NCBI GenBank assembly: GCA_902764545.1
Contig: CACWWC010000001.1
Span: 26,482 to 90,481 of the forward strand
DNA: 64,000 bases
Origin: an uncultured Erysipelotrichaceae bacterium
GTDB taxonomy: Bacteria; Bacillota_I; Bacilli_A; RF39; UBA660
Direction of reading: 5' to 3'
The number at the start of each line of letters is the position of its first letter. The first letter of the stretch is position 1. Below the pieces are notes generated by a model that ran no database searches, was not told where the DNA came from, and saw only the letters and a program-made list of their open reading frames with translations. Shown one piece after another: positions 4,877 to 63,272 of the stretch. Both the position numbers and the translations under genes were made by a program.

Positions 4877-5093
4877 ATCTTGTATATGGTAATAGTGCTA
4901 TTGCTCTTGCTCTTTTAATTTGTCTTGAAATAAATCTTTGATGTTCAGCACAGTTTCCAGTAACACGTCTTGGCAATATTTTTCCTTTTTCATTTATATA
5001 TCTTTTAAGTGTTTCTGCATCTTTCCAGTCAACTGGCTTTCCAGTACACATAGCACATACTTTTTTCTTTCTACGATTGTTAAATTCTGCCAT
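4875..5093 (-). CDS. rpsR: 30S ribosomal protein S18
   Basis: 72 aa; [10 protein letters not shown]...[18 protein letters not shown]...[19 protein letters not shown]. Part of the rpsF-ssb-rpsR operon. Confidence 0.95.
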
Positions 5094-5119
5094 ATTCTTT
5101 CCTCCTTTTTTATTAAGAT

Positions 5120-5605
5120 TTAGAATGGTAATTCATCATCGCTTATTTCTATGTTTGCTCCAAAATCAGCAAATGGATTACTATCTACATCTGTTCCTTT
5201 TGGCTCTGGGTTATCACCAAAGTCGTAAGGTGTTGGCTCTGCATTATTTGTTGCAGAACTTTTAATATTTCCTGCCCCGTTTGAAGAATTCTTTGAACCT
5301 AAAAATTCAACATTGTCTGCAACAACTTCTGTAACATATCTTTTTTGCCCATTGTTGTCGTCGTACGATCTTGTTTGAATTCTTCCATCTATTGCAACTT
5401 GACTTCCTTGTTGTAAATAATTTTTCACATTTTCTGCTTGTTTTCTCCAAACAACTATATTAATAAAATCTGCTTCTCTTTCTCCTTGTTGATTTGAGAA
5501 GTTTCTATTTACTGCAAGTGAAAACGTTGCAACTGCAGTGTTGCTTCCTGTATATCTTAATTCTGGATCTCTTGTTAATCTTCCTATTAAAAATACCTTA
5601 TTCAT
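5120..5605 (-). CDS. ssb: Single-stranded DNA-binding protein
   Basis: 161 aa. [21 protein letters not shown]-fold N-terminus, Gly/Asn-rich linker, acidic tip DDELPF. Confidence 0.95.
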
Positions 5606-5623
5606 TAATATACCTCTTTTTTA

Positions 5624-28893: not shown

Positions 28894-28942
28894 TTTCACA
28901 TTTTTTATTTACATTGATTTTTATTTATAGTAAAATATATTC

Positions 28943-29014
28943 GTGCAATAAAAGTGTCTGAAATAGGTCAGGATTGGAAAATAGCAGCCTTAAGGTCCAA
29001 CTTTTATGTGCACA
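28943..29014 (+). ncRNA. ffs: Small (4.5S-type) signal recognition particle RNA
   Basis: AGGUCAGGAUUGGAAAAUAGCAGCC matches the SRP domain IV core (E. coli GGUCAGGUCCGGAAGGAAGCAGCC), including the GGAA tetraloop. Closing stem gtgcaataaaagt / acttttatgtgcac. Upstream TTGATT...TAAAAT promoter-like boxes and a downstream T-run. Confidence 0.75.
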
Positions 29015-29032
29015 TTTTTATTTGGAGGAAAT

Positions 29033-39100: not shown

Positions 39101-39484
39101 CTTATCAATACTATTGATAATAAGAATAGATTTAATGGGGTAAAAAAGGAGCTAGAAGATAGGTTTGGTAAATTAAACAATGACATTTTAGTGTATATGT
39201 ATGAAGAATGGTTTGAAAAAATTGCGAAAAAAATTGGACTGGTAAATGTTTTGCAAAATAAAAACTCAATTGAAATGTTGTTTCCAAGATTTTTGGTGGA
39301 AAAGATGAAAATTGATGATATATTTGAGGTTGCTTTTAATATAACACCATCGTTTAGATTTGTTAGTAGAGGTACTAATCTAGTTATAATTTTGGATATT
39401 ATTCATCTAGATAAACATCCAATTTATTATTTGGTTGAATTATTGAATAAAATTAATGATAATTTAAATAACTCTATTGACTAA
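36170..39484 (+). CDS. mfd: Transcription-repair coupling factor Mfd
   Basis: 1104 aa. CarD-like GDYVVHNVHGIGRY, helicase motifs GDVGFGKTEVA, IIDEEQRFG and QLYQIRGRVGRS, and a TRCF C-terminal domain. Confidence 0.95.
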   Translation: MNLFKDFIDISLKKNICLINMTDEFFCVFLKSVKEKYNSGILVVVDSIYDANKMYNIMKNYENDVFLFPMDDFLTSEALAISPDLMIKRLETINSVVDKCNCIIITNLMGYLRFLPKKSVYIENIINLNVGDIIEPKSLSEKLYNLGYSIDTIVNKTGECAIRGFVIDVFPIDEEYPCRIEFFDNEIESIRFFDPETQMSIKKIENISIKPYSEFISNRDVLSEHFGKQKFLQLYEEPVNISSYFDNVITFFKDYDLLEKSYVNILNDISTYKNEKDSDFSYDYMFKLNSINVDFPVYFSSLNNYISSDKFNDFFDFNISSINNFNEDANRINEFINNSINENKTVIICLKKHQIRSLLKYLNMKIYETDFYNIKMHSVNIVESDSQQGFIYNDLIVLTVNELFNIKSTKKRYYTKFKYSSTINDINKLNIGDYVVHNVHGIGRYNGIKTLCLNDVVKDYLEVLYKGTDKIYIPVEKIDLISKYSARDGVEPKLNRLGGNDWNKTKSRVKAKINDLADKLMKLYAERESRRGFAFSKDCELSAEFENAFPYDLTKDQKTAIAQIKDDMEKPVPMDRLLCGDVGFGKTEVAFVAAFKAILDSKQVLLLCPTTILASQHYENALLRFKDFPVNIALLNRFTSSSDVKKVLKGLKDGTIDFIIGTHRLLSDDIYMRDLGLLIIDEEQRFGVVHKEKIKQYKVNVDVLTLTATPIPRTLQMSLVGMRSLSLITTPPVNRYPVQTYVIEESSSILKDAIYKELSRSGQVYILYNRVQLIDDFYNKIHNIVPDARIAIVHGQMTKNQLESTLYDFIKYEYDVLICTTIIETGIDIPNVNTLIIMDADKFGLSQLYQIRGRVGRSDKFAYAYLMYQPFKSLTENAIKRLNVIKQFTELGSGFSIATRDLSIRGAGDILGSEQAGFIDSVGIDLYLKMLNDEIRKRNNDENVIDNEDDSKPLINVTTHISDDYVVDDDLKIEIHKLINTIDNKNRFNGVKKELEDRFGKLNNDILVYMYEEWFEKIAKKIGLVNVLQNKNSIEMLFPRFLVEKMKIDDIFEVAFNITPSFRFVSRGTNLVIILDIIHLDKHPIYYLVELLNKINDNLNNSID

Positions 39485-39527
39485 ATTTCATTTAACTGCT
39501 AAATTGTTAATGCTAGGAGGATATTTG

Positions 39528-40187
39528 ATGATAAGTGAATTTGAAGATATAAAAAAGCAACATGAACAAAGTTATAAAAAAGCATTAGTTGAAATAGTAA
39601 AGAATAATACAGATGTATTGGTAGATGAAGATATAAAAATTTTATTAAAGACACCTCCTCTTGATTCTATGGACTTGATTAAGGCAAAAATGTTGGATTT
39701 AGCAAAGAAGAATAAGTTAATTTTAGATACTAATGAACTTTCTAAAATTCTTAATTGTTACAGAAAGGAAATATTAAAGTGTTCTGCAGAGATTAAAAAA
39801 ATTAGATTGGGATGTTTAATAAAAAAGATAGAACAATATGATTTAAAAAAAAGTAATGACACTATAAAAATTAATAAAAAAGATTTTATTGATATAAATA
39901 AACAAATAAAAAAGGTTGTTAAGAATCAACTTGATATTGCTTATCAAACTAACATTGAAAAAAAGGTTAATAAAGTATTTACAGGTAACATAGATAAAAT
40001 AATAATTGATAATTATCTAATCGATCTTTCTAAATATTTAAATGGAAAATATCAAAAACAATTGATGGAAAGTTTTGATATAAAGGTGCTTGTTAAAGAT
40101 ACAACTTTAATCAACAGTGTAAAGGAACAAGCAGAACGATATTTATTTACTTTACACAATTCTAGACTTTTAAATGACATAAAATAA
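39528..40187 (+). CDS. Hypothetical lysine-rich, predicted helical protein
   Basis: Start re-called at ATG 39528 behind AGGAGG (track start 39477 overlaps mfd). 219 aa, no motif I recognise. Coding is supported only by ORF length, the RBS and codon style. Confidence 0.5.
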   Translation: MISEFEDIKKQHEQSYKKALVEIVKNNTDVLVDEDIKILLKTPPLDSMDLIKAKMLDLAKKNKLILDTNELSKILNCYRKEILKCSAEIKKIRLGCLIKKIEQYDLKKSNDTIKINKKDFIDINKQIKKVVKNQLDIAYQTNIEKKVNKVFTGNIDKIIIDNYLIDLSKYLNGKYQKQLMESFDIKVLVKDTTLINSVKEQAERYLFTLHNSRLLNDIK

Positions 40188-40225: not shown

Positions 40226-40448
40226 CATGTTAAATGTGATGACGAAGAGCGATATATTAATAATTTCTTAGAGAGCTCTGATGGTGAAAATGAGTAAATT
40301 TGTATATATTTGTATGGCTTCTGAACTTCTATATTGATATGTAAGTATAGACGTACGCAGGCGTTAACTGTTTAAAGTGCATAATTTAATTATTATGAAT
40401 TAAGGTGGTACCGCGAGCTAATCGTCCTTATTTTATAATAATTTTTTT
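40226..40448 (+). promoter_or_regulatory. T-box riboswitch leader (Met specifier) controlling metG
   Basis: T-box sequence AAGGTGGTACCGCG at 40402-40415. Stem I elements tgatgacgaagag and AGAGA (40270-40274). Candidate specifier AUG at 40290-40292 followed by a purine. Upstream extended -10 tgtgataat. T-run before the metG SD. Confidence 0.8.
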
Positions 40449-42035: not shown

Positions 42036-42791
42036 ATGTATATTGATACACATTGTCATTTATCTATTAATGATTATGATAATATAGATACAGTTATTAA
42101 TGATAATCATTTAGCTGGAATTGAAAAGATAGTTATATCGGGATGTACAAAAGATGATATTAATGAATCTTTAGATTATGGTTTTAAGTATTCTGACGTT
42201 TATGTAACGATTGGCTATCATCCCAGTGAGGCAATGACTACGTCAGAAAAAGAGTTGTCTGAGTTAAAAAAACAGATATTAAATAATAAAGTTGTTGGAA
42301 TTGGTGAAATTGGCTTGGATTATCATTATGGTAAAGATGATATTAATGAGCAAAAAAAATTATTTAGAGACCAATTGGAGATAGCAAGAGATAATAATTT
42401 GCCTGTTGTAATACATTCAAGAGATGCGACCTTTGATACGATTCAGATATTAAAGGAATTTCCTACAGTATTTGGTGTTATTCACTGCTTTAATGGAAGT
42501 TTAGAAACAGCTAAGGAGTATATATCGATGGGGTTTAAATTGGGAATTGGTGGAGTTGTCACCTTTAAAAATAGCAAGCTTTATAAGGTAATTGAAAAGA
42601 TAGGTTTAGACAGTATTGTGTTTGAGACGGATAGTCCTTATCTTACACCTGAACCATTTAGAGGTAAAAAGAATAGTTCTAAATATATTCCATATATATC
42701 TCACAAAGTTGCTGAGATATTGAATATATCTGAATATGAGGTAAGCTCAAAAGTACTATCAAATACTTATGAGGTATTTGACTTGGATTAA
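42036..42791 (+). CDS. tatD: TatD-family metal-dependent hydrolase (YabD)
   Basis: Start ATG 42036 (MYIDTHCHL). Motifs GEIGLDYH, VVIHSRDA, IHCF and ETDSPYL. Confidence 0.9.
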   Translation: MYIDTHCHLSINDYDNIDTVINDNHLAGIEKIVISGCTKDDINESLDYGFKYSDVYVTIGYHPSEAMTTSEKELSELKKQILNNKVVGIGEIGLDYHYGKDDINEQKKLFRDQLEIARDNNLPVVIHSRDATFDTIQILKEFPTVFGVIHCFNGSLETAKEYISMGFKLGIGGVVTFKNSKLYKVIEKIGLDSIVFETDSPYLTPEPFRGKKNSSKYIPYISHKVAEILNISEYEVSSKVLSNTYEVFDLD

Positions 42792-42829
42792 TTTTTGTGA
42801 TATCTTATAAACAATAATAGGATGGTGAT

Positions 42830-43417
42830 TTGGTGATTAAATCAAAATCTATTAAAAATAATATTTTATTTTTATTAATTATCGTTATAGTGATTGTTTT
42901 ATTAATTATAGCTGGATTTTTATATTATTTACGTACAAAAGAAGGTACTGCTATTAATGAAAATAATGTTGTTTTATATAGTAATATAGAGAATATAACA
43001 TTAAAAAGTGGATTATCTTCTTCTGATAAGTTTGGCAAATCATTTTCTAAAAATACTAATTCTAGTTTTGGATATTTAGATTTTGAAATTGTTAATGTCT
43101 GTGATACAGCTCAAAATTACCAAATTTTTGTTAAAAAAAATTATATTGAGCAAAACGAAATAAATTCTAATTACATAAAATTTTATCTTACGGATCAAGA
43201 TGATTATCCTATAGGCGAATTTGATAGTAATATTGTGCCTTCTTTTAATAAATTAAAATATATTGAGAATAAGCCGTCCAGTAAGCTTTTATATAGTGGA
43301 AAGTTAGATTCTTATCAAAATAAAAGAATGAGGTTAAGAGTTTGGATTGCTGAAAATTATGTTAGCACTGATGATGATAAAGTTTTTTCTTTTGATATTG
43401 GTGTTAGAGCAGTGTAG
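42830..43417 (+). CDS. Membrane-anchored or secreted protein, paralog A of the SipW-linked pair
   Basis: 195 aa, TTG/GTG start behind GGATGGTGA. Basic N-terminus plus one hydrophobic helix (ILFLLIIVIVIVLLIIAGFLYYL), then a Ser/Asn/Lys-rich ectodomain. Shares YQIFVKK, IKFYL, RLRVWI and a terminal FSFDIGVRAV with the next gene. Confidence 0.6.
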   Translation: MVIKSKSIKNNILFLLIIVIVIVLLIIAGFLYYLRTKEGTAINENNVVLYSNIENITLKSGLSSSDKFGKSFSKNTNSSFGYLDFEIVNVCDTAQNYQIFVKKNYIEQNEINSNYIKFYLTDQDDYPIGEFDSNIVPSFNKLKYIENKPSSKLLYSGKLDSYQNKRMRLRVWIAENYVSTDDDKVFSFDIGVRAV

Positions 43418-43425
43418 GTGTTTTT

Positions 43426-44028
43426 ATGAAGAATGAAAAGGTTGATGAAAAGTTGTCAAAAAAGTTTATTGTATTGATATGTGTAATTTGTTTGATGTTA
43501 TTATGCTTTTTTCTTGTGTGTATTATAGTTAATGTTAATACAAAACCAAAAGAGATTTTGAAAGAAAAAAATGGCGGTTATGTAACTTTAAATTATTCAT
43601 CTAATAATAATGTATTGATTAATAACAATCCTGTGCCATTAACAAATGATGTTGGTATAAAGTTAAATACCGAAGGTACCTTTTTTGATTTTACTGTTAA
43701 TGCTGATTTAAAGAGCGCAAAAAAAGTTAAATATGAAATATCTGTGAAGAAGAGTAATGATAGTCAAGTATCTGATAATGATATTATTGTTTATTTGGAA
43801 AAAGAAGATAGTGGAATGTATAATAGTTTTTTAAAACCTACAAAGTATAAACCATTAAAAAGTGATTCAAATGTAGGTACAAAAAAAGGAACTATGATTT
43901 TGGTGAGTGATGTTGTTACTAAATCAAGAGCTGATAATTATAGACTTAGAACTTGGATTTCTAATACAGGTTCTAACACAAATTCTTCATACTCTTTAGA
44001 AGTTAATGTAAAGGCTGTTGTTATGTAG
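43426..44028 (+). CDS. Membrane-anchored or secreted protein, paralog B of the SipW-linked pair
   Basis: 200 aa. Basic N-terminus plus a hydrophobic helix (FIVLICVICLMLLCFFLVCIIV). Motifs YEISVKK, IIVYL, RLRTWI and terminal YSLEVNVKAVV parallel paralog A. Confidence 0.6.
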   Translation: MKNEKVDEKLSKKFIVLICVICLMLLCFFLVCIIVNVNTKPKEILKEKNGGYVTLNYSSNNNVLINNNPVPLTNDVGIKLNTEGTFFDFTVNADLKSAKKVKYEISVKKSNDSQVSDNDIIVYLEKEDSGMYNSFLKPTKYKPLKSDSNVGTKKGTMILVSDVVTKSRADNYRLRTWISNTGSNTNSSYSLEVNVKAVVM

Positions 44029-44030
44029 TA

Positions 44031-44061
44031 AAAAAGAAGTGTCAAGTTTACTTCTTTTTTT
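44031..44061 (+). terminator. Rho-independent terminator after paralog B
   Basis: aaaaagaagt (44031-44040) / acttcttttt (44050-44059) with a 9-nt loop, running into a T-run. Confidence 0.6.
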
Positions 44062-44125
44062 ATTATTTATATAGTTTTTTAAAAATTCTAATAATATAAT
44101 GAATATAAAAGTAGGAGAGAGTAAA

Positions 44126-44737
44126 ATGGTTTTAGTTAACAATAATTTATTTGAAAAAGTTAAATATATTTTTTTATTTGTTTTAAGAGCTTTTTTAATT
44201 TCTATGATTTGCTTTTGTGTTTTCTTAGGTTTAGTTTTCTTGCTGTATTTTGGAGATTTAATTTATAATGTAAAATCTGGAAATTATAAAAATCCATTGT
44301 TAAATGGATATATCATTGTTTCACAAAGTATGATACCTACTATAAAAATAAATGATGCTATAGTTGTTAAAAGAGATAACTATAATAGGTACAATGTTGG
44401 TGATATTATTAGTTTTTTTTCTACAGAATATGAAAAAAGTGGTATAATTGTCACACATAGAATCATTAATAAAAATACTGATAATAGTGAGAAAAAGCAA
44501 TTGTATCAAACAAAAGGAGATAATAATACTATTGCTGATAGAGAACTTGTTTCTGCTGACAATATTTATGGTAAGGTAATGTTTATCATTCCAAAACTCG
44601 GTTATTTACAACGCTTTTTGTCAAAACCGATTAATTTAATTTGTTTTATTATTGTTCCTTCATTTGCTATAATACTTTTAAACTTTTTTAAGATTGGATA
44701 TTTATTTGATAAACATTCCAAAGTAGATTATTCTTAA
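44126..44737 (+). CDS. sipW: Signal peptidase I, SipW (ER/archaeal) type
   Basis: Likely start ATG 44126 behind AGGAGAGAG (track start 44099). Catalytic-Ser box VSQSMIPTI, His box IVTHRII and TKGDNN, plus N- and C-terminal TM segments. This is the pattern of Ser-His SipW-type peptidases rather than Ser-Lys LepB type. Confidence 0.8.
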   Translation: MVLVNNNLFEKVKYIFLFVLRAFLISMICFCVFLGLVFLLYFGDLIYNVKSGNYKNPLLNGYIIVSQSMIPTIKINDAIVVKRDNYNRYNVGDIISFFSTEYEKSGIIVTHRIINKNTDNSEKKQLYQTKGDNNTIADRELVSADNIYGKVMFIIPKLGYLQRFLSKPINLICFIIVPSFAIILLNFFKIGYLFDKHSKVDYS

Positions 44738-44793: not shown

Positions 44794-45594
44794 ATGGAAA
44801 AATATGAAGTAAATTTTAAAAAAAAGTATGGTCAGAATTTTTTGAAAGATTTGAATATAGTTAAAAGAATTGTAAATTTATGTGATATTGATAATGATTC
44901 TCTTGTTATTGAAGTTGGTCCTGGAGGAGGAGTTTTAACAAGGGAATTGGCATTGGTTTCAAAAAATGTACTAGCTTATGAAATTGATACTGATCTTTCG
45001 GATGAACTTTATAAGAGACTTTCTGCTTTTGATAATGTAGATATTATTTTTCAGGATTTTTTGAAATCAGATATTAGTAAGGATATTGAAAACTATAGCT
45101 TTAATAAAATTTTTTTTATAAGTAACGTTCCATATTATATTACTACTCCAATTATATTTAAACTAATAAAGAGTAATATTTGTTTTGACAAAGTTGTTAT
45201 GATGGTACAAAAAGAGGTTGGAGATAGGTTTACGGCTTCTGTTGGAAGTAGGGATTATGGTTCAATTACAGTTTTGTTAAATTATTTTTATGTTATAAAA
45301 AAAGAATTTTTTGTTTCAAAGGGGAACTTTATTCCTCAACCTAAGGTTGATAGTGTTATTATTTCTTTTCAAAATAATGTTTGTAGACCAAAACTTTATA
45401 ATTTTGATTTTTTTGAAAGAATTGTTAGGGATAGCTTTCAGTTTAAAAGAAAAACTATAAAAAATAACTTAAAAAAGTATGACTTAAATATTATACAATC
45501 GGTTTTAAATGAGTATGGTTTTGATCTTAATGTTAGAGCAGAAATGTTAGATGTGGAAGTGTTTATAAAAATTAGTAATTTATTATGGAAGTAA
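44794..45594 (+). CDS. rsmA: 16S rRNA (adenine1518/1519-N6)-dimethyltransferase RsmA/KsgA
   Basis: 266 aa; KKKYGQNFLKD, EVGPGGGVLT, SNVPYYITTPI. Confidence 0.95.
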   Translation: MEKYEVNFKKKYGQNFLKDLNIVKRIVNLCDIDNDSLVIEVGPGGGVLTRELALVSKNVLAYEIDTDLSDELYKRLSAFDNVDIIFQDFLKSDISKDIENYSFNKIFFISNVPYYITTPIIFKLIKSNICFDKVVMMVQKEVGDRFTASVGSRDYGSITVLLNYFYVIKKEFFVSKGNFIPQPKVDSVIISFQNNVCRPKLYNFDFFERIVRDSFQFKRKTIKNNLKKYDLNIIQSVLNEYGFDLNVRAEMLDVEVFIKISNLLWK

Positions 45595-63124: not shown

Positions 63125-63272
63125 TTATAATAAAGACAATTTGTTGGTGCCATAGACAGTAGGTATAAATGTAAATCCTACCGAGGACTTTGTATAAGTG
63201 GAAGAGAGTCCTTTGGTATGTGCTAAAGGACTCTTTTATGGTATCCCTCAATATAGATTAAGGAGGTGTATT
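63125..63272 (+). promoter_or_regulatory. Candidate L10 (rplJ) leader
   Basis: A 160-nt structured gap before rplJ with hairpins such as gtaggtataaatgtaaatcctac and aggactctt...aaaggactctt repeats. Position matches the Firmicute L10 leader; the model was not scored. Confidence 0.45.

Follow-up and report, generated by a model that had tools for sequence, protein, structure and literature searches.

The interval between tatD and rsmA in a 64-kilobase (kb) stretch of DNA from an uncultured Erysipelotrichaceae bacterium (contig CACWWC010000001.1; the whole stretch is called the window here) encodes two small membrane-anchored proteins, paralogs A and B, followed by a signal peptidase. We tentatively read this as the core locus of a SipW-type export or processing system for a lineage-specific family of surface proteins, in which A and B of the window's clade would be abundant, tethered derivatives that are no longer cleaved. 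The block is real and conserved, had gone unannotated, and is a variation on the theme of SipW with its cognate proteins, not a categorically new system. An earlier note on this DNA, made from the sequence alone, had counted three genes between tatD and rsmA, and the open reading frames (ORFs) and the Pfam-identified flanks agree. All three ORFs lie on the + strand:

42830–43417, + strand: paralog A, ORF from TTG 42830, 195 aa
43426–44028, + strand: paralog B, ORF, 200 aa
44099–44737, + strand: signal peptidase gene, ORF, 212 aa
42018–42791: tatD, upstream flank (PF01026, E 2e-73)
44794–45594: rsmA, downstream flank (PF00398, E 1e-55)

A scan of one genome per GTDB species gave 62 loci; reading covered the 64-kb window of the source genome and about 10 kb per relative locus. 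All 62 come from metagenome-assembled genomes (MAGs) of gut Bacilli that have not been cultured; the samples were from rumen, rabbit, Hadza and mouse, and the labels vary among Erysipelotrichaceae, Mollicutes, Tenericutes and Bacilli. The order metG–tatD–(2–5 paralogs)–peptidase–rsmA is found at about 60 of the 62 species-level loci, independently of whether the neighbouring sporulation genes yabG/yabP are present. The number and order of the paralogs differ between loci and the adjacency to the peptidase is kept, so that the locus shares the conserved pairing of cargo and peptidase that marks SipW-cognate operons (tapA-sipW-tasA, sipW-bsa). Co-occurrence of the two paralogs and the peptidase in other genomes, which the earlier note had proposed to check, is thus the rule. 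The same note had called the block an accessory cassette; that label is wrong, as the block is fixed at the same locus in about 60 species with conserved regulatory signals and belongs to the core of the lineage. A tblastn search of one family member against plasmid and phage collections gave no match, and a literature search for SipW in Mollicutes or in taxa with names beginning Erysipelotrich- returned nothing relevant.

The regulatory signals of the block in the window are the following:

42778–42806, + strand: sigma-70-type promoter of the A–B unit, −35 TTGACT, 17-nt spacer and TG-extended −10 TATCTT, from a consensus scan
44030–44061, + strand: intrinsic terminator-like hairpin and T-run that ends the A–B unit, RNAfold −10.2 kcal/mol
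44070–44125, + strand: upstream region of the peptidase gene, with a conserved TATAGTTTTTT element, a TATAAT-like box and a GGAGAG Shine–Dalgarno sequence

The A–B promoter overlaps the terminal tatD codons (...F-D-L-stop), and TTGAC[T]-N17-21-TAnnnT spans the tatD stop in 57 of 60 distinct orthologous loci, which argues for joint constraint on the tatD C-terminus and the promoter. The median spacing between paralogs is 8 nt, and in most loci a hairpin follows the last of them, with stems that differ from one locus to another (GAAGT/ACTTC, ACGTG/CACGT, AAGTG/CACTT); in the window this is the terminator that the earlier note had placed after the second paralog. Together, the conserved, near-consensus promoter and the hairpin indicate that A and B form a strongly promoted bicistronic unit of their own and that the peptidase is expressed separately. 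The hairpin loop GTGT[AC]AA recurs in 41 of 63 distinct intergenic regions and a TATAG..TTTTT motif 5' of the peptidase gene in 28 of the 63; for these two conserved features, a regulator site and a promoter of a non-sigma-A type are both conceivable. Farther upstream, a T-box leader (RF00230, 111 bits) lies 5' of metG at 40230–40432. No terminator was seen in the 38-nt gap between tatD and A, and read-through of the T-box-controlled metG–tatD transcript into A–B is therefore possible.

Sequence comparison identifies A and B as paralogs, as had been proposed, with similarity that is weak but real: BLASTP aligns them at 26% identity over 125 aa (E 9e-6), and profiles built from A orthologs and B orthologs match in hhalign with a probability of 98.9% (E 2.5e-17). 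The motifs quoted in the earlier note are all present in the translations, and its forecast of one helix with a beta-rich ectodomain is matched by AlphaFold 2 (AF2) models (predicted local distance difference test, pLDDT, 83.6 for A and 86.9 for B), each with an N-terminal transmembrane (TM) helix, a short linker and a beta-sandwich of 9–10 strands. Paralog A has a basic N-terminus, a single TM helix at about residues 5–37 and a beta-sandwich ectodomain; B has a TM helix at residues 12–37, a low-confidence linker at 42–47 and a 9-strand beta-sandwich, with the hallmark motifs YLEKEDSG and NYRLRTW and a conserved juxtamembrane LSK.FWI. Searches against Pfam and NCBIfam returned only sub-threshold matches, nearly all of them to the TM or N-terminal segment, in keeping with the note's remark that it recognised no known family in the two. 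Close homologs of A (28) and homologs of B (60) are all unnamed and metagenomic.

Structural searches placed the fold only in general terms. With Foldseek against the PDB, both models retrieved only generic folds of the jelly-roll, carbohydrate-binding module (CBM) and capsid types, with TM-scores between about 0.2 and 0.45. Profiles A4 and A5 searched against PDB sequences gave nothing meaningful, and the archaeal pilins 6NAV and 8TIB appeared in the profile–PDB search at E 0.3–1 through the hydrophobic helix only. We considered type IV pilins and rejected them: there is neither a G↓FxxxE site nor an archaeal class III site (arrows mark cleavage positions here and below), the predicted helix is 26 aa long, and a linker separates it from the domain.

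The module shared by A and B extends well beyond this locus. A profile of A and B, against which paralog A scores 169.9 bits, was searched against 1.84 billion representative proteins clustered at 50% identity and recovered 2,969 clusters at E ≤ 1e-3, of which 1,279 stay in at E ≤ 1e-10. Many members are 400–1,743 aa long and others are stand-alone modules from about 190 aa. In the long members scanned, the match is limited to the N-terminal ~200 residues, and beyond it lie Big_2 repeats, Listeria-Bacteroides repeats (Flg_new) or unannotated sequence. Because it heads long proteins, the module, a TM segment followed by a beta-sandwich of ~150 aa, is, on sequence grounds, the N-terminal unit of a large unannotated family of surface proteins; none of ten family clusters looked up carried a name in the source database. 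The adhesin-like long members are encoded away from any peptidase, and a metagenome scan for members bearing the cleavage site described below yielded 14 short loci with a peptidase in none. One family cluster (L071/L072, 8001–15080) consists of a site-bearing member of 1,743 aa, one ORF of 151 aa and members of 187 and 194 aa; it has no peptidase and lies directly 5' of murG-murB-ftsQ-ftsA-ftsZ.

In the long members and many of the short ones, the hydrophobic stretch is followed immediately by G-[VI]-[ST]-[YF]-A↓A-F-[ST]-[YF], and T-G-T-[IV]-x-M occurs ~12 residues past this motif. Among 158 sequences examined, which were representatives and cluster members, 50 have the core G[VI][ST][YF]A↓AF. 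The relatives' [ST]-[YF]-A↓A site conforms to the −3/−1 rule and resembles that of TasA (GGTWA↓AFND...SGTLDL), the mature form of which starts exactly after TWA in PDB entry 8AUR. When the motif-bearing subfamily was compared with a 32-sequence alignment of the TasA family, hhalign reported a probability of 70% (E 4e-5, 61 columns), and its alignment pairs one cleavage site with the other. In a control in which both alignments were cut at the cleavage site, the probability was 0.4% (E 0.15), and alignment A4 against the TasA alignment also gave 0.4%. Because the similarity vanishes without the signal peptide, we do not claim homology to TasA: the signal peptide and cleavage site of the relatives appear to be of the TasA class, whereas their cargo domain is not demonstrably a TasA homolog.

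Other searches are in line with this. PF12389 (TasA/camelysin, Peptidase_M73) matched neither A nor B at E ≤ 1 and 2 of 28 site-bearing relatives at E 0.035; with the mature-domain comparison, this accords with the earlier remark that the pair has no camelysin or TasA signature. TIGR04088 (SipW-dependent-type signal peptide, threshold 19 bits), which gave 38 bits with TasA as a positive control, matched neither A nor B. Thresholds of TIGR04089 and TIGR04090 were not reached, the latter having no match to A or B at E ≤ 1. TasA was absent from the Foldseek top 50 for both models.

Site-bearing paralogs also occur inside the tatD–rsmA cluster itself, at L041, L043, L050, L053, L054, L056 and L064. 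Three of these loci (L041, L043 and L056) each hold three tandem GISFA↓AFSYS genes, a B-type gene and then the peptidase. A-type orthologs read SYA↓VF in L053 and SYA↓AF in L054 at the site, and B orthologs show a graded decay from SFA↓TF through SFS↓AY and AFV↓CY to IIV↓FS or IIV↓NV. At the aligned positions, A of the window reads LYY↓L and B reads IIV↓NV. Bulky or branched residues have replaced the small ones at −1 and −3 in both paralogs of the window's clade, so that neither follows the small-residue rule for substrates of type I signal peptidases. The stretch that would be the free N-terminus in the relatives is, in B, a linker rich in Pro and charged residues (N-R-x-P-E-V...G-G), modelled with low pLDDT. 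As both have lost the site by the −3/−1 rule, A and B of the window are most likely uncleaved, signal-anchored type II membrane proteins. The length of the hydrophobic run was tried as a discriminator between signal anchors and signal peptides and was not informative.

These sequences bear on the proposal in the earlier note that the paralogs are cargo of a SipW-class peptidase. The sequences favour that view for the relatives, which bear a TasA-like site, and do not predict it for the window's A and B, which have lost it; the analogy appears right in direction, and the specific prediction of cleaved fibre subunits runs contrary to the residues at the aligned site. A version of it would have the neighbouring SipW-type peptidase continue to cut A and B, at a non-canonical site, with release and polymerisation of both into a TasA-like extracellular fibre or matrix. 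The layout of two paralogs plus a SipW-type gene resembles tapA-sipW-tasA and sipW-bsaA-bsaB (PMC9245690, PMC11580942), the relatives have the TasA-like site, and a strong conserved promoter with a terminator before the peptidase would fit an abundant structural subunit; in addition, the archaeal TasA homolog AbpA (7UEG) stands at Foldseek rank 19 for A. We nevertheless regard this version as unlikely. The position is not kept small across the clade, the relatives' would-be donor strand (AFSYSK.G...N.I) is replaced in B by the low-pLDDT linker, the mature domain has no detectable TasA homology, and the Foldseek TM-scores of ~0.3 point to generic jelly-roll or CBM folds.

The third gene was described in the earlier note as an ER/archaeal-type signal peptidase I, and profile scores and conserved catalytic residues bear this out. 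It reaches 95.9 bits with TIGR02228 (archaeal/ER-type signal peptidase I, S26B; cut-off 51.85), 19.3 bits with the Pfam S26 model, below 22.9, and 80.8 bits with the SipW-Bacillus equivalog NF046067, whose cut-off is 190. By these profiles, the peptidase is in the same subfamily as SipW without being an ortholog by the NCBI criterion, and among solved structures it is closest to human SEC11C and SEC11A. It has TM segments at both the N- and C-terminus and carries the catalytic Ser in SQSMIP, a His rather than a Lys in THRI and an Asp in KGDNN. In 63 orthologs, S77 (SM.P), H120 (THR), D141 (GDNN) and D147 are at least 97% conserved, and the S77, H120 and GDNN motifs align with those of SipW and SEC11. 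The catalytic residues are retained also in clades whose adjacent paralogs have no cleavage site, and the enzyme looks like an active peptidase of the SipW/Sec11 type. At six loci (L041, L043, L047, L053, L054 and L056), the peptidase ORF is 240–252 aa long, as compared with ~197–212 aa in the window's clade; most of the six hold site-bearing paralogs in the cluster. These lengths derive from ORF calls, so over-extended starts may account for part of the difference.

Scanning the 64-kb window for a second signal peptidase revealed no LepB-type gene and no other. This observation fits an explanation in which the lineage relies on the enzyme as its general, and possibly sole, type I signal peptidase, with A and B as unrelated, abundant, membrane-anchored coat or S-layer-like proteins and their adjacency as inherited synteny. 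The position of the block among housekeeping genes, the separate transcription signals of A–B and the peptidase, and the missing cleavage site in A and B would all suit it. So would weak matches of 4 of 36 B orthologs to DUF3821 (PF12863) at E ≤ 0.1, which corresponds to the D1–D2 Ig-like domains of the S-layer protein of Methanospirillum (Methanomicrobiales); these matches are marginal, with a best score of 25 bits (P0056) against a cut-off of 23, and the window's own B has none. Synteny alone would have to explain why the adjacency persists in ~60 species despite varying paralog number and order, and why several species have site-bearing paralogs beside the peptidase, and we judge this explanation improbable.

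The kinship of the peptidase to SEC11A and SEC11C raises a further idea, in which the two paralogs serve as non-catalytic members of a multi-subunit signal peptidase. In the eukaryotic signal peptidase complex (SPC), Sec11 works with Spc3/SPCS3, a type II protein composed of an N-terminal TM segment and a lumenal beta-sandwich of ~150 aa. A and B match this architecture and size (TM ~12–37, beta-sandwich, 195–200 aa), co-occur strictly with the enzyme and, in B, conserve the juxtamembrane LSK.FWI; loss of the cleavage site would be compatible with a permanent partner. In such a bacterial analogue of the SPC, they would fill the Spc3 role as permanent partners recruited from the enzyme's former substrates through conversion of signal peptide to anchor. 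We consider both the complex and this origin for its subunits highly improbable. Pfam gave no SPC22/Spc3 (PF04573) match, nor did the profile–PDB search at E ≤ 10, entries 7P2P and 7P2Q included, and SPCS3 was absent from the Foldseek top 50. Moreover, the same module heads hundreds of adhesin-like proteins far from any peptidase, and the strong promoter and the terminator before the peptidase gene predict a large excess of A and B, not a stoichiometric complex.

We return to the reading of the locus as the core of a SipW-type system with tethered paralogs, which can be stated as a mechanism. In the window's clade, the signal peptide would have been converted into a signal anchor; A and B would no longer be cleaved and would remain abundant, membrane-bound type II proteins (N-in, C-out), with the beta-sandwich of the family exposed at the cell surface. 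The peptidase, which keeps its catalytic residues in site-less clades, would process other substrates, namely family members with the site whose genes lie elsewhere and, possibly, the general secretome. If TapA/TasA and BsaA are a guide, the A and B ectodomains may be a cell-bound partner of the released members, serving as a base, anchor or assembly factor.

Several points weigh against this account. The TasA likeness of the relatives is confined to the signal peptide and gone once it is removed, and it may reflect a common class of peptidase, not common descent of the cargo; TIGR04088 gives no match or at most 10.3 bits on the relatives, in the correct register and below threshold. The −3/−1 rule is the basis for predicting that A and B escape cleavage, and enzymes of the Sec11 type may tolerate other residues. 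Some 60% of the clade's B orthologs have S, A or T one position past the aligned site (before N-R-x-P-E-V), and A holds a non-conserved GTA↓I candidate farther downstream. The proposed anchor or assembly role is drawn by analogy only, and the site-bearing members that the account predicts elsewhere in genomes of the window's clade would lie beyond the 64 kb read here and the ~10 kb read per relative.

Among the loci of the species scan that are long enough to judge, the one departure from the tatD–rsmA order is L068, where a lone member stands in another context near a T2SSE ATPase and a pilin-like gene. This member (5001–5609) is site-bearing, with GISYA↓VW, and the match of the pilin-like gene to the prepilin N-methylation motif is weak and sub-threshold. 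A preprint on C. perfringens reports that SipW-dependent matrix proteins need type IV pilus genes for their secretion (PMC11580942).

In the window, the block is surrounded by housekeeping genes. Downstream of rsmA follow yabG, veg, spoVG, yabP, yabQ, divIC and tilS, and the G+C content is ~22–26% across the region with no compositional break. The true start of A is probably GTG 42833, giving 194 aa, because this agrees with P0001 and with the spacing from Shine–Dalgarno sequence to start in the orthologs; that of the peptidase is probably ATG 44126, preceded by the GGAGAG Shine–Dalgarno sequence. Between mfd and the metG leader lies an ORF of 236 aa (39477–40187) with no Pfam match, and ORFs of 216–217 aa at the equivalent position in L001 and L006 likewise have no recorded Pfam match. 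In B. subtilis, mfd is followed by spoVT, and L003 has a SpoVT-like gene immediately 5' of metG. Elsewhere in the window are a signal recognition particle (SRP) RNA of the small type (RF00169) at 28932–29029 and an L10 leader (RF00557) at 63132–63246. Up to ~18.4 kb every ORF is on the − strand, and beyond 18.7 kb every ORF is on the + strand; given this switch near 18.5 kb, the window probably includes the replication origin region.

The known SipW-type peptidases belong to a few operons for biofilm matrix. In the present case, this class of enzyme is fixed at a housekeeping locus across an uncultured gut lineage and is tied to a very large unnamed protein family. As in tapA-sipW-tasA of B. 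subtilis, a Sec11/SipW-type peptidase stands beside two beta-rich exported proteins, and relatives of A and B share with TasA both the cleavage region ([ST]-[YF]-A↓A-F as against TWA↓AF) and, after it, a G-T-[ILV] strand in matching register. The differences are nonetheless considerable. The mature domains have no detectable homology to TasA or PF12389; A is a paralog of B, a relationship that is not obvious between TapA and TasA; the copies in the window have no cleavage site; and, unlike the regulated biofilm operon, the locus looks constitutive and sits among housekeeping genes. The peptidase itself falls below the SipW equivalog cut-off, and the hidden Markov model for SipW-dependent-type signal peptides, TIGR04088, stays below threshold on the family's proteins.

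The sipW-bsaA-bsaB-bsaC operon of C. perfringens is similar in that SipW adjoins two paralogous small matrix proteins, with further members that vary between strains (PMC11580942). In BsaA and BsaB, however, the signal peptide is of the ordinary, cleavable kind and homology to TasA is remote. A and B gave no match at E ≤ 1 to the BsaA-family model TIGR04090, and no von Willebrand factor A (VWA) protein or sortase is found nearby. With the eukaryotic SPC, the locus shares the subfamily of the catalytic subunit and neighbours of Spc3-like layout (~180–200 aa); it differs in that sequence and fold searches gave no match of A or B to SPCS3 and that their module also forms the N-terminus of many large surface proteins.

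Sorting peptidase systems such as sortase/LPXTG and archaeosortase/PGF-CTERM offer another parallel: a peptidase at a fixed locus and scattered cargo genes that share a terminal recognition module. In the system described here, that module is instead N-terminal and includes a folded domain, and the link between enzyme and substrates is putative. If this reading of the locus is right, the family would provide a new N-terminal sorting or assembly module for Gram-positive surface proteins, a natural case of a signal peptide becoming a signal anchor in the copies adjacent to the peptidase, and a way to annotate thousands of 'hypothetical' surface proteins of rumen and gut Bacilli.

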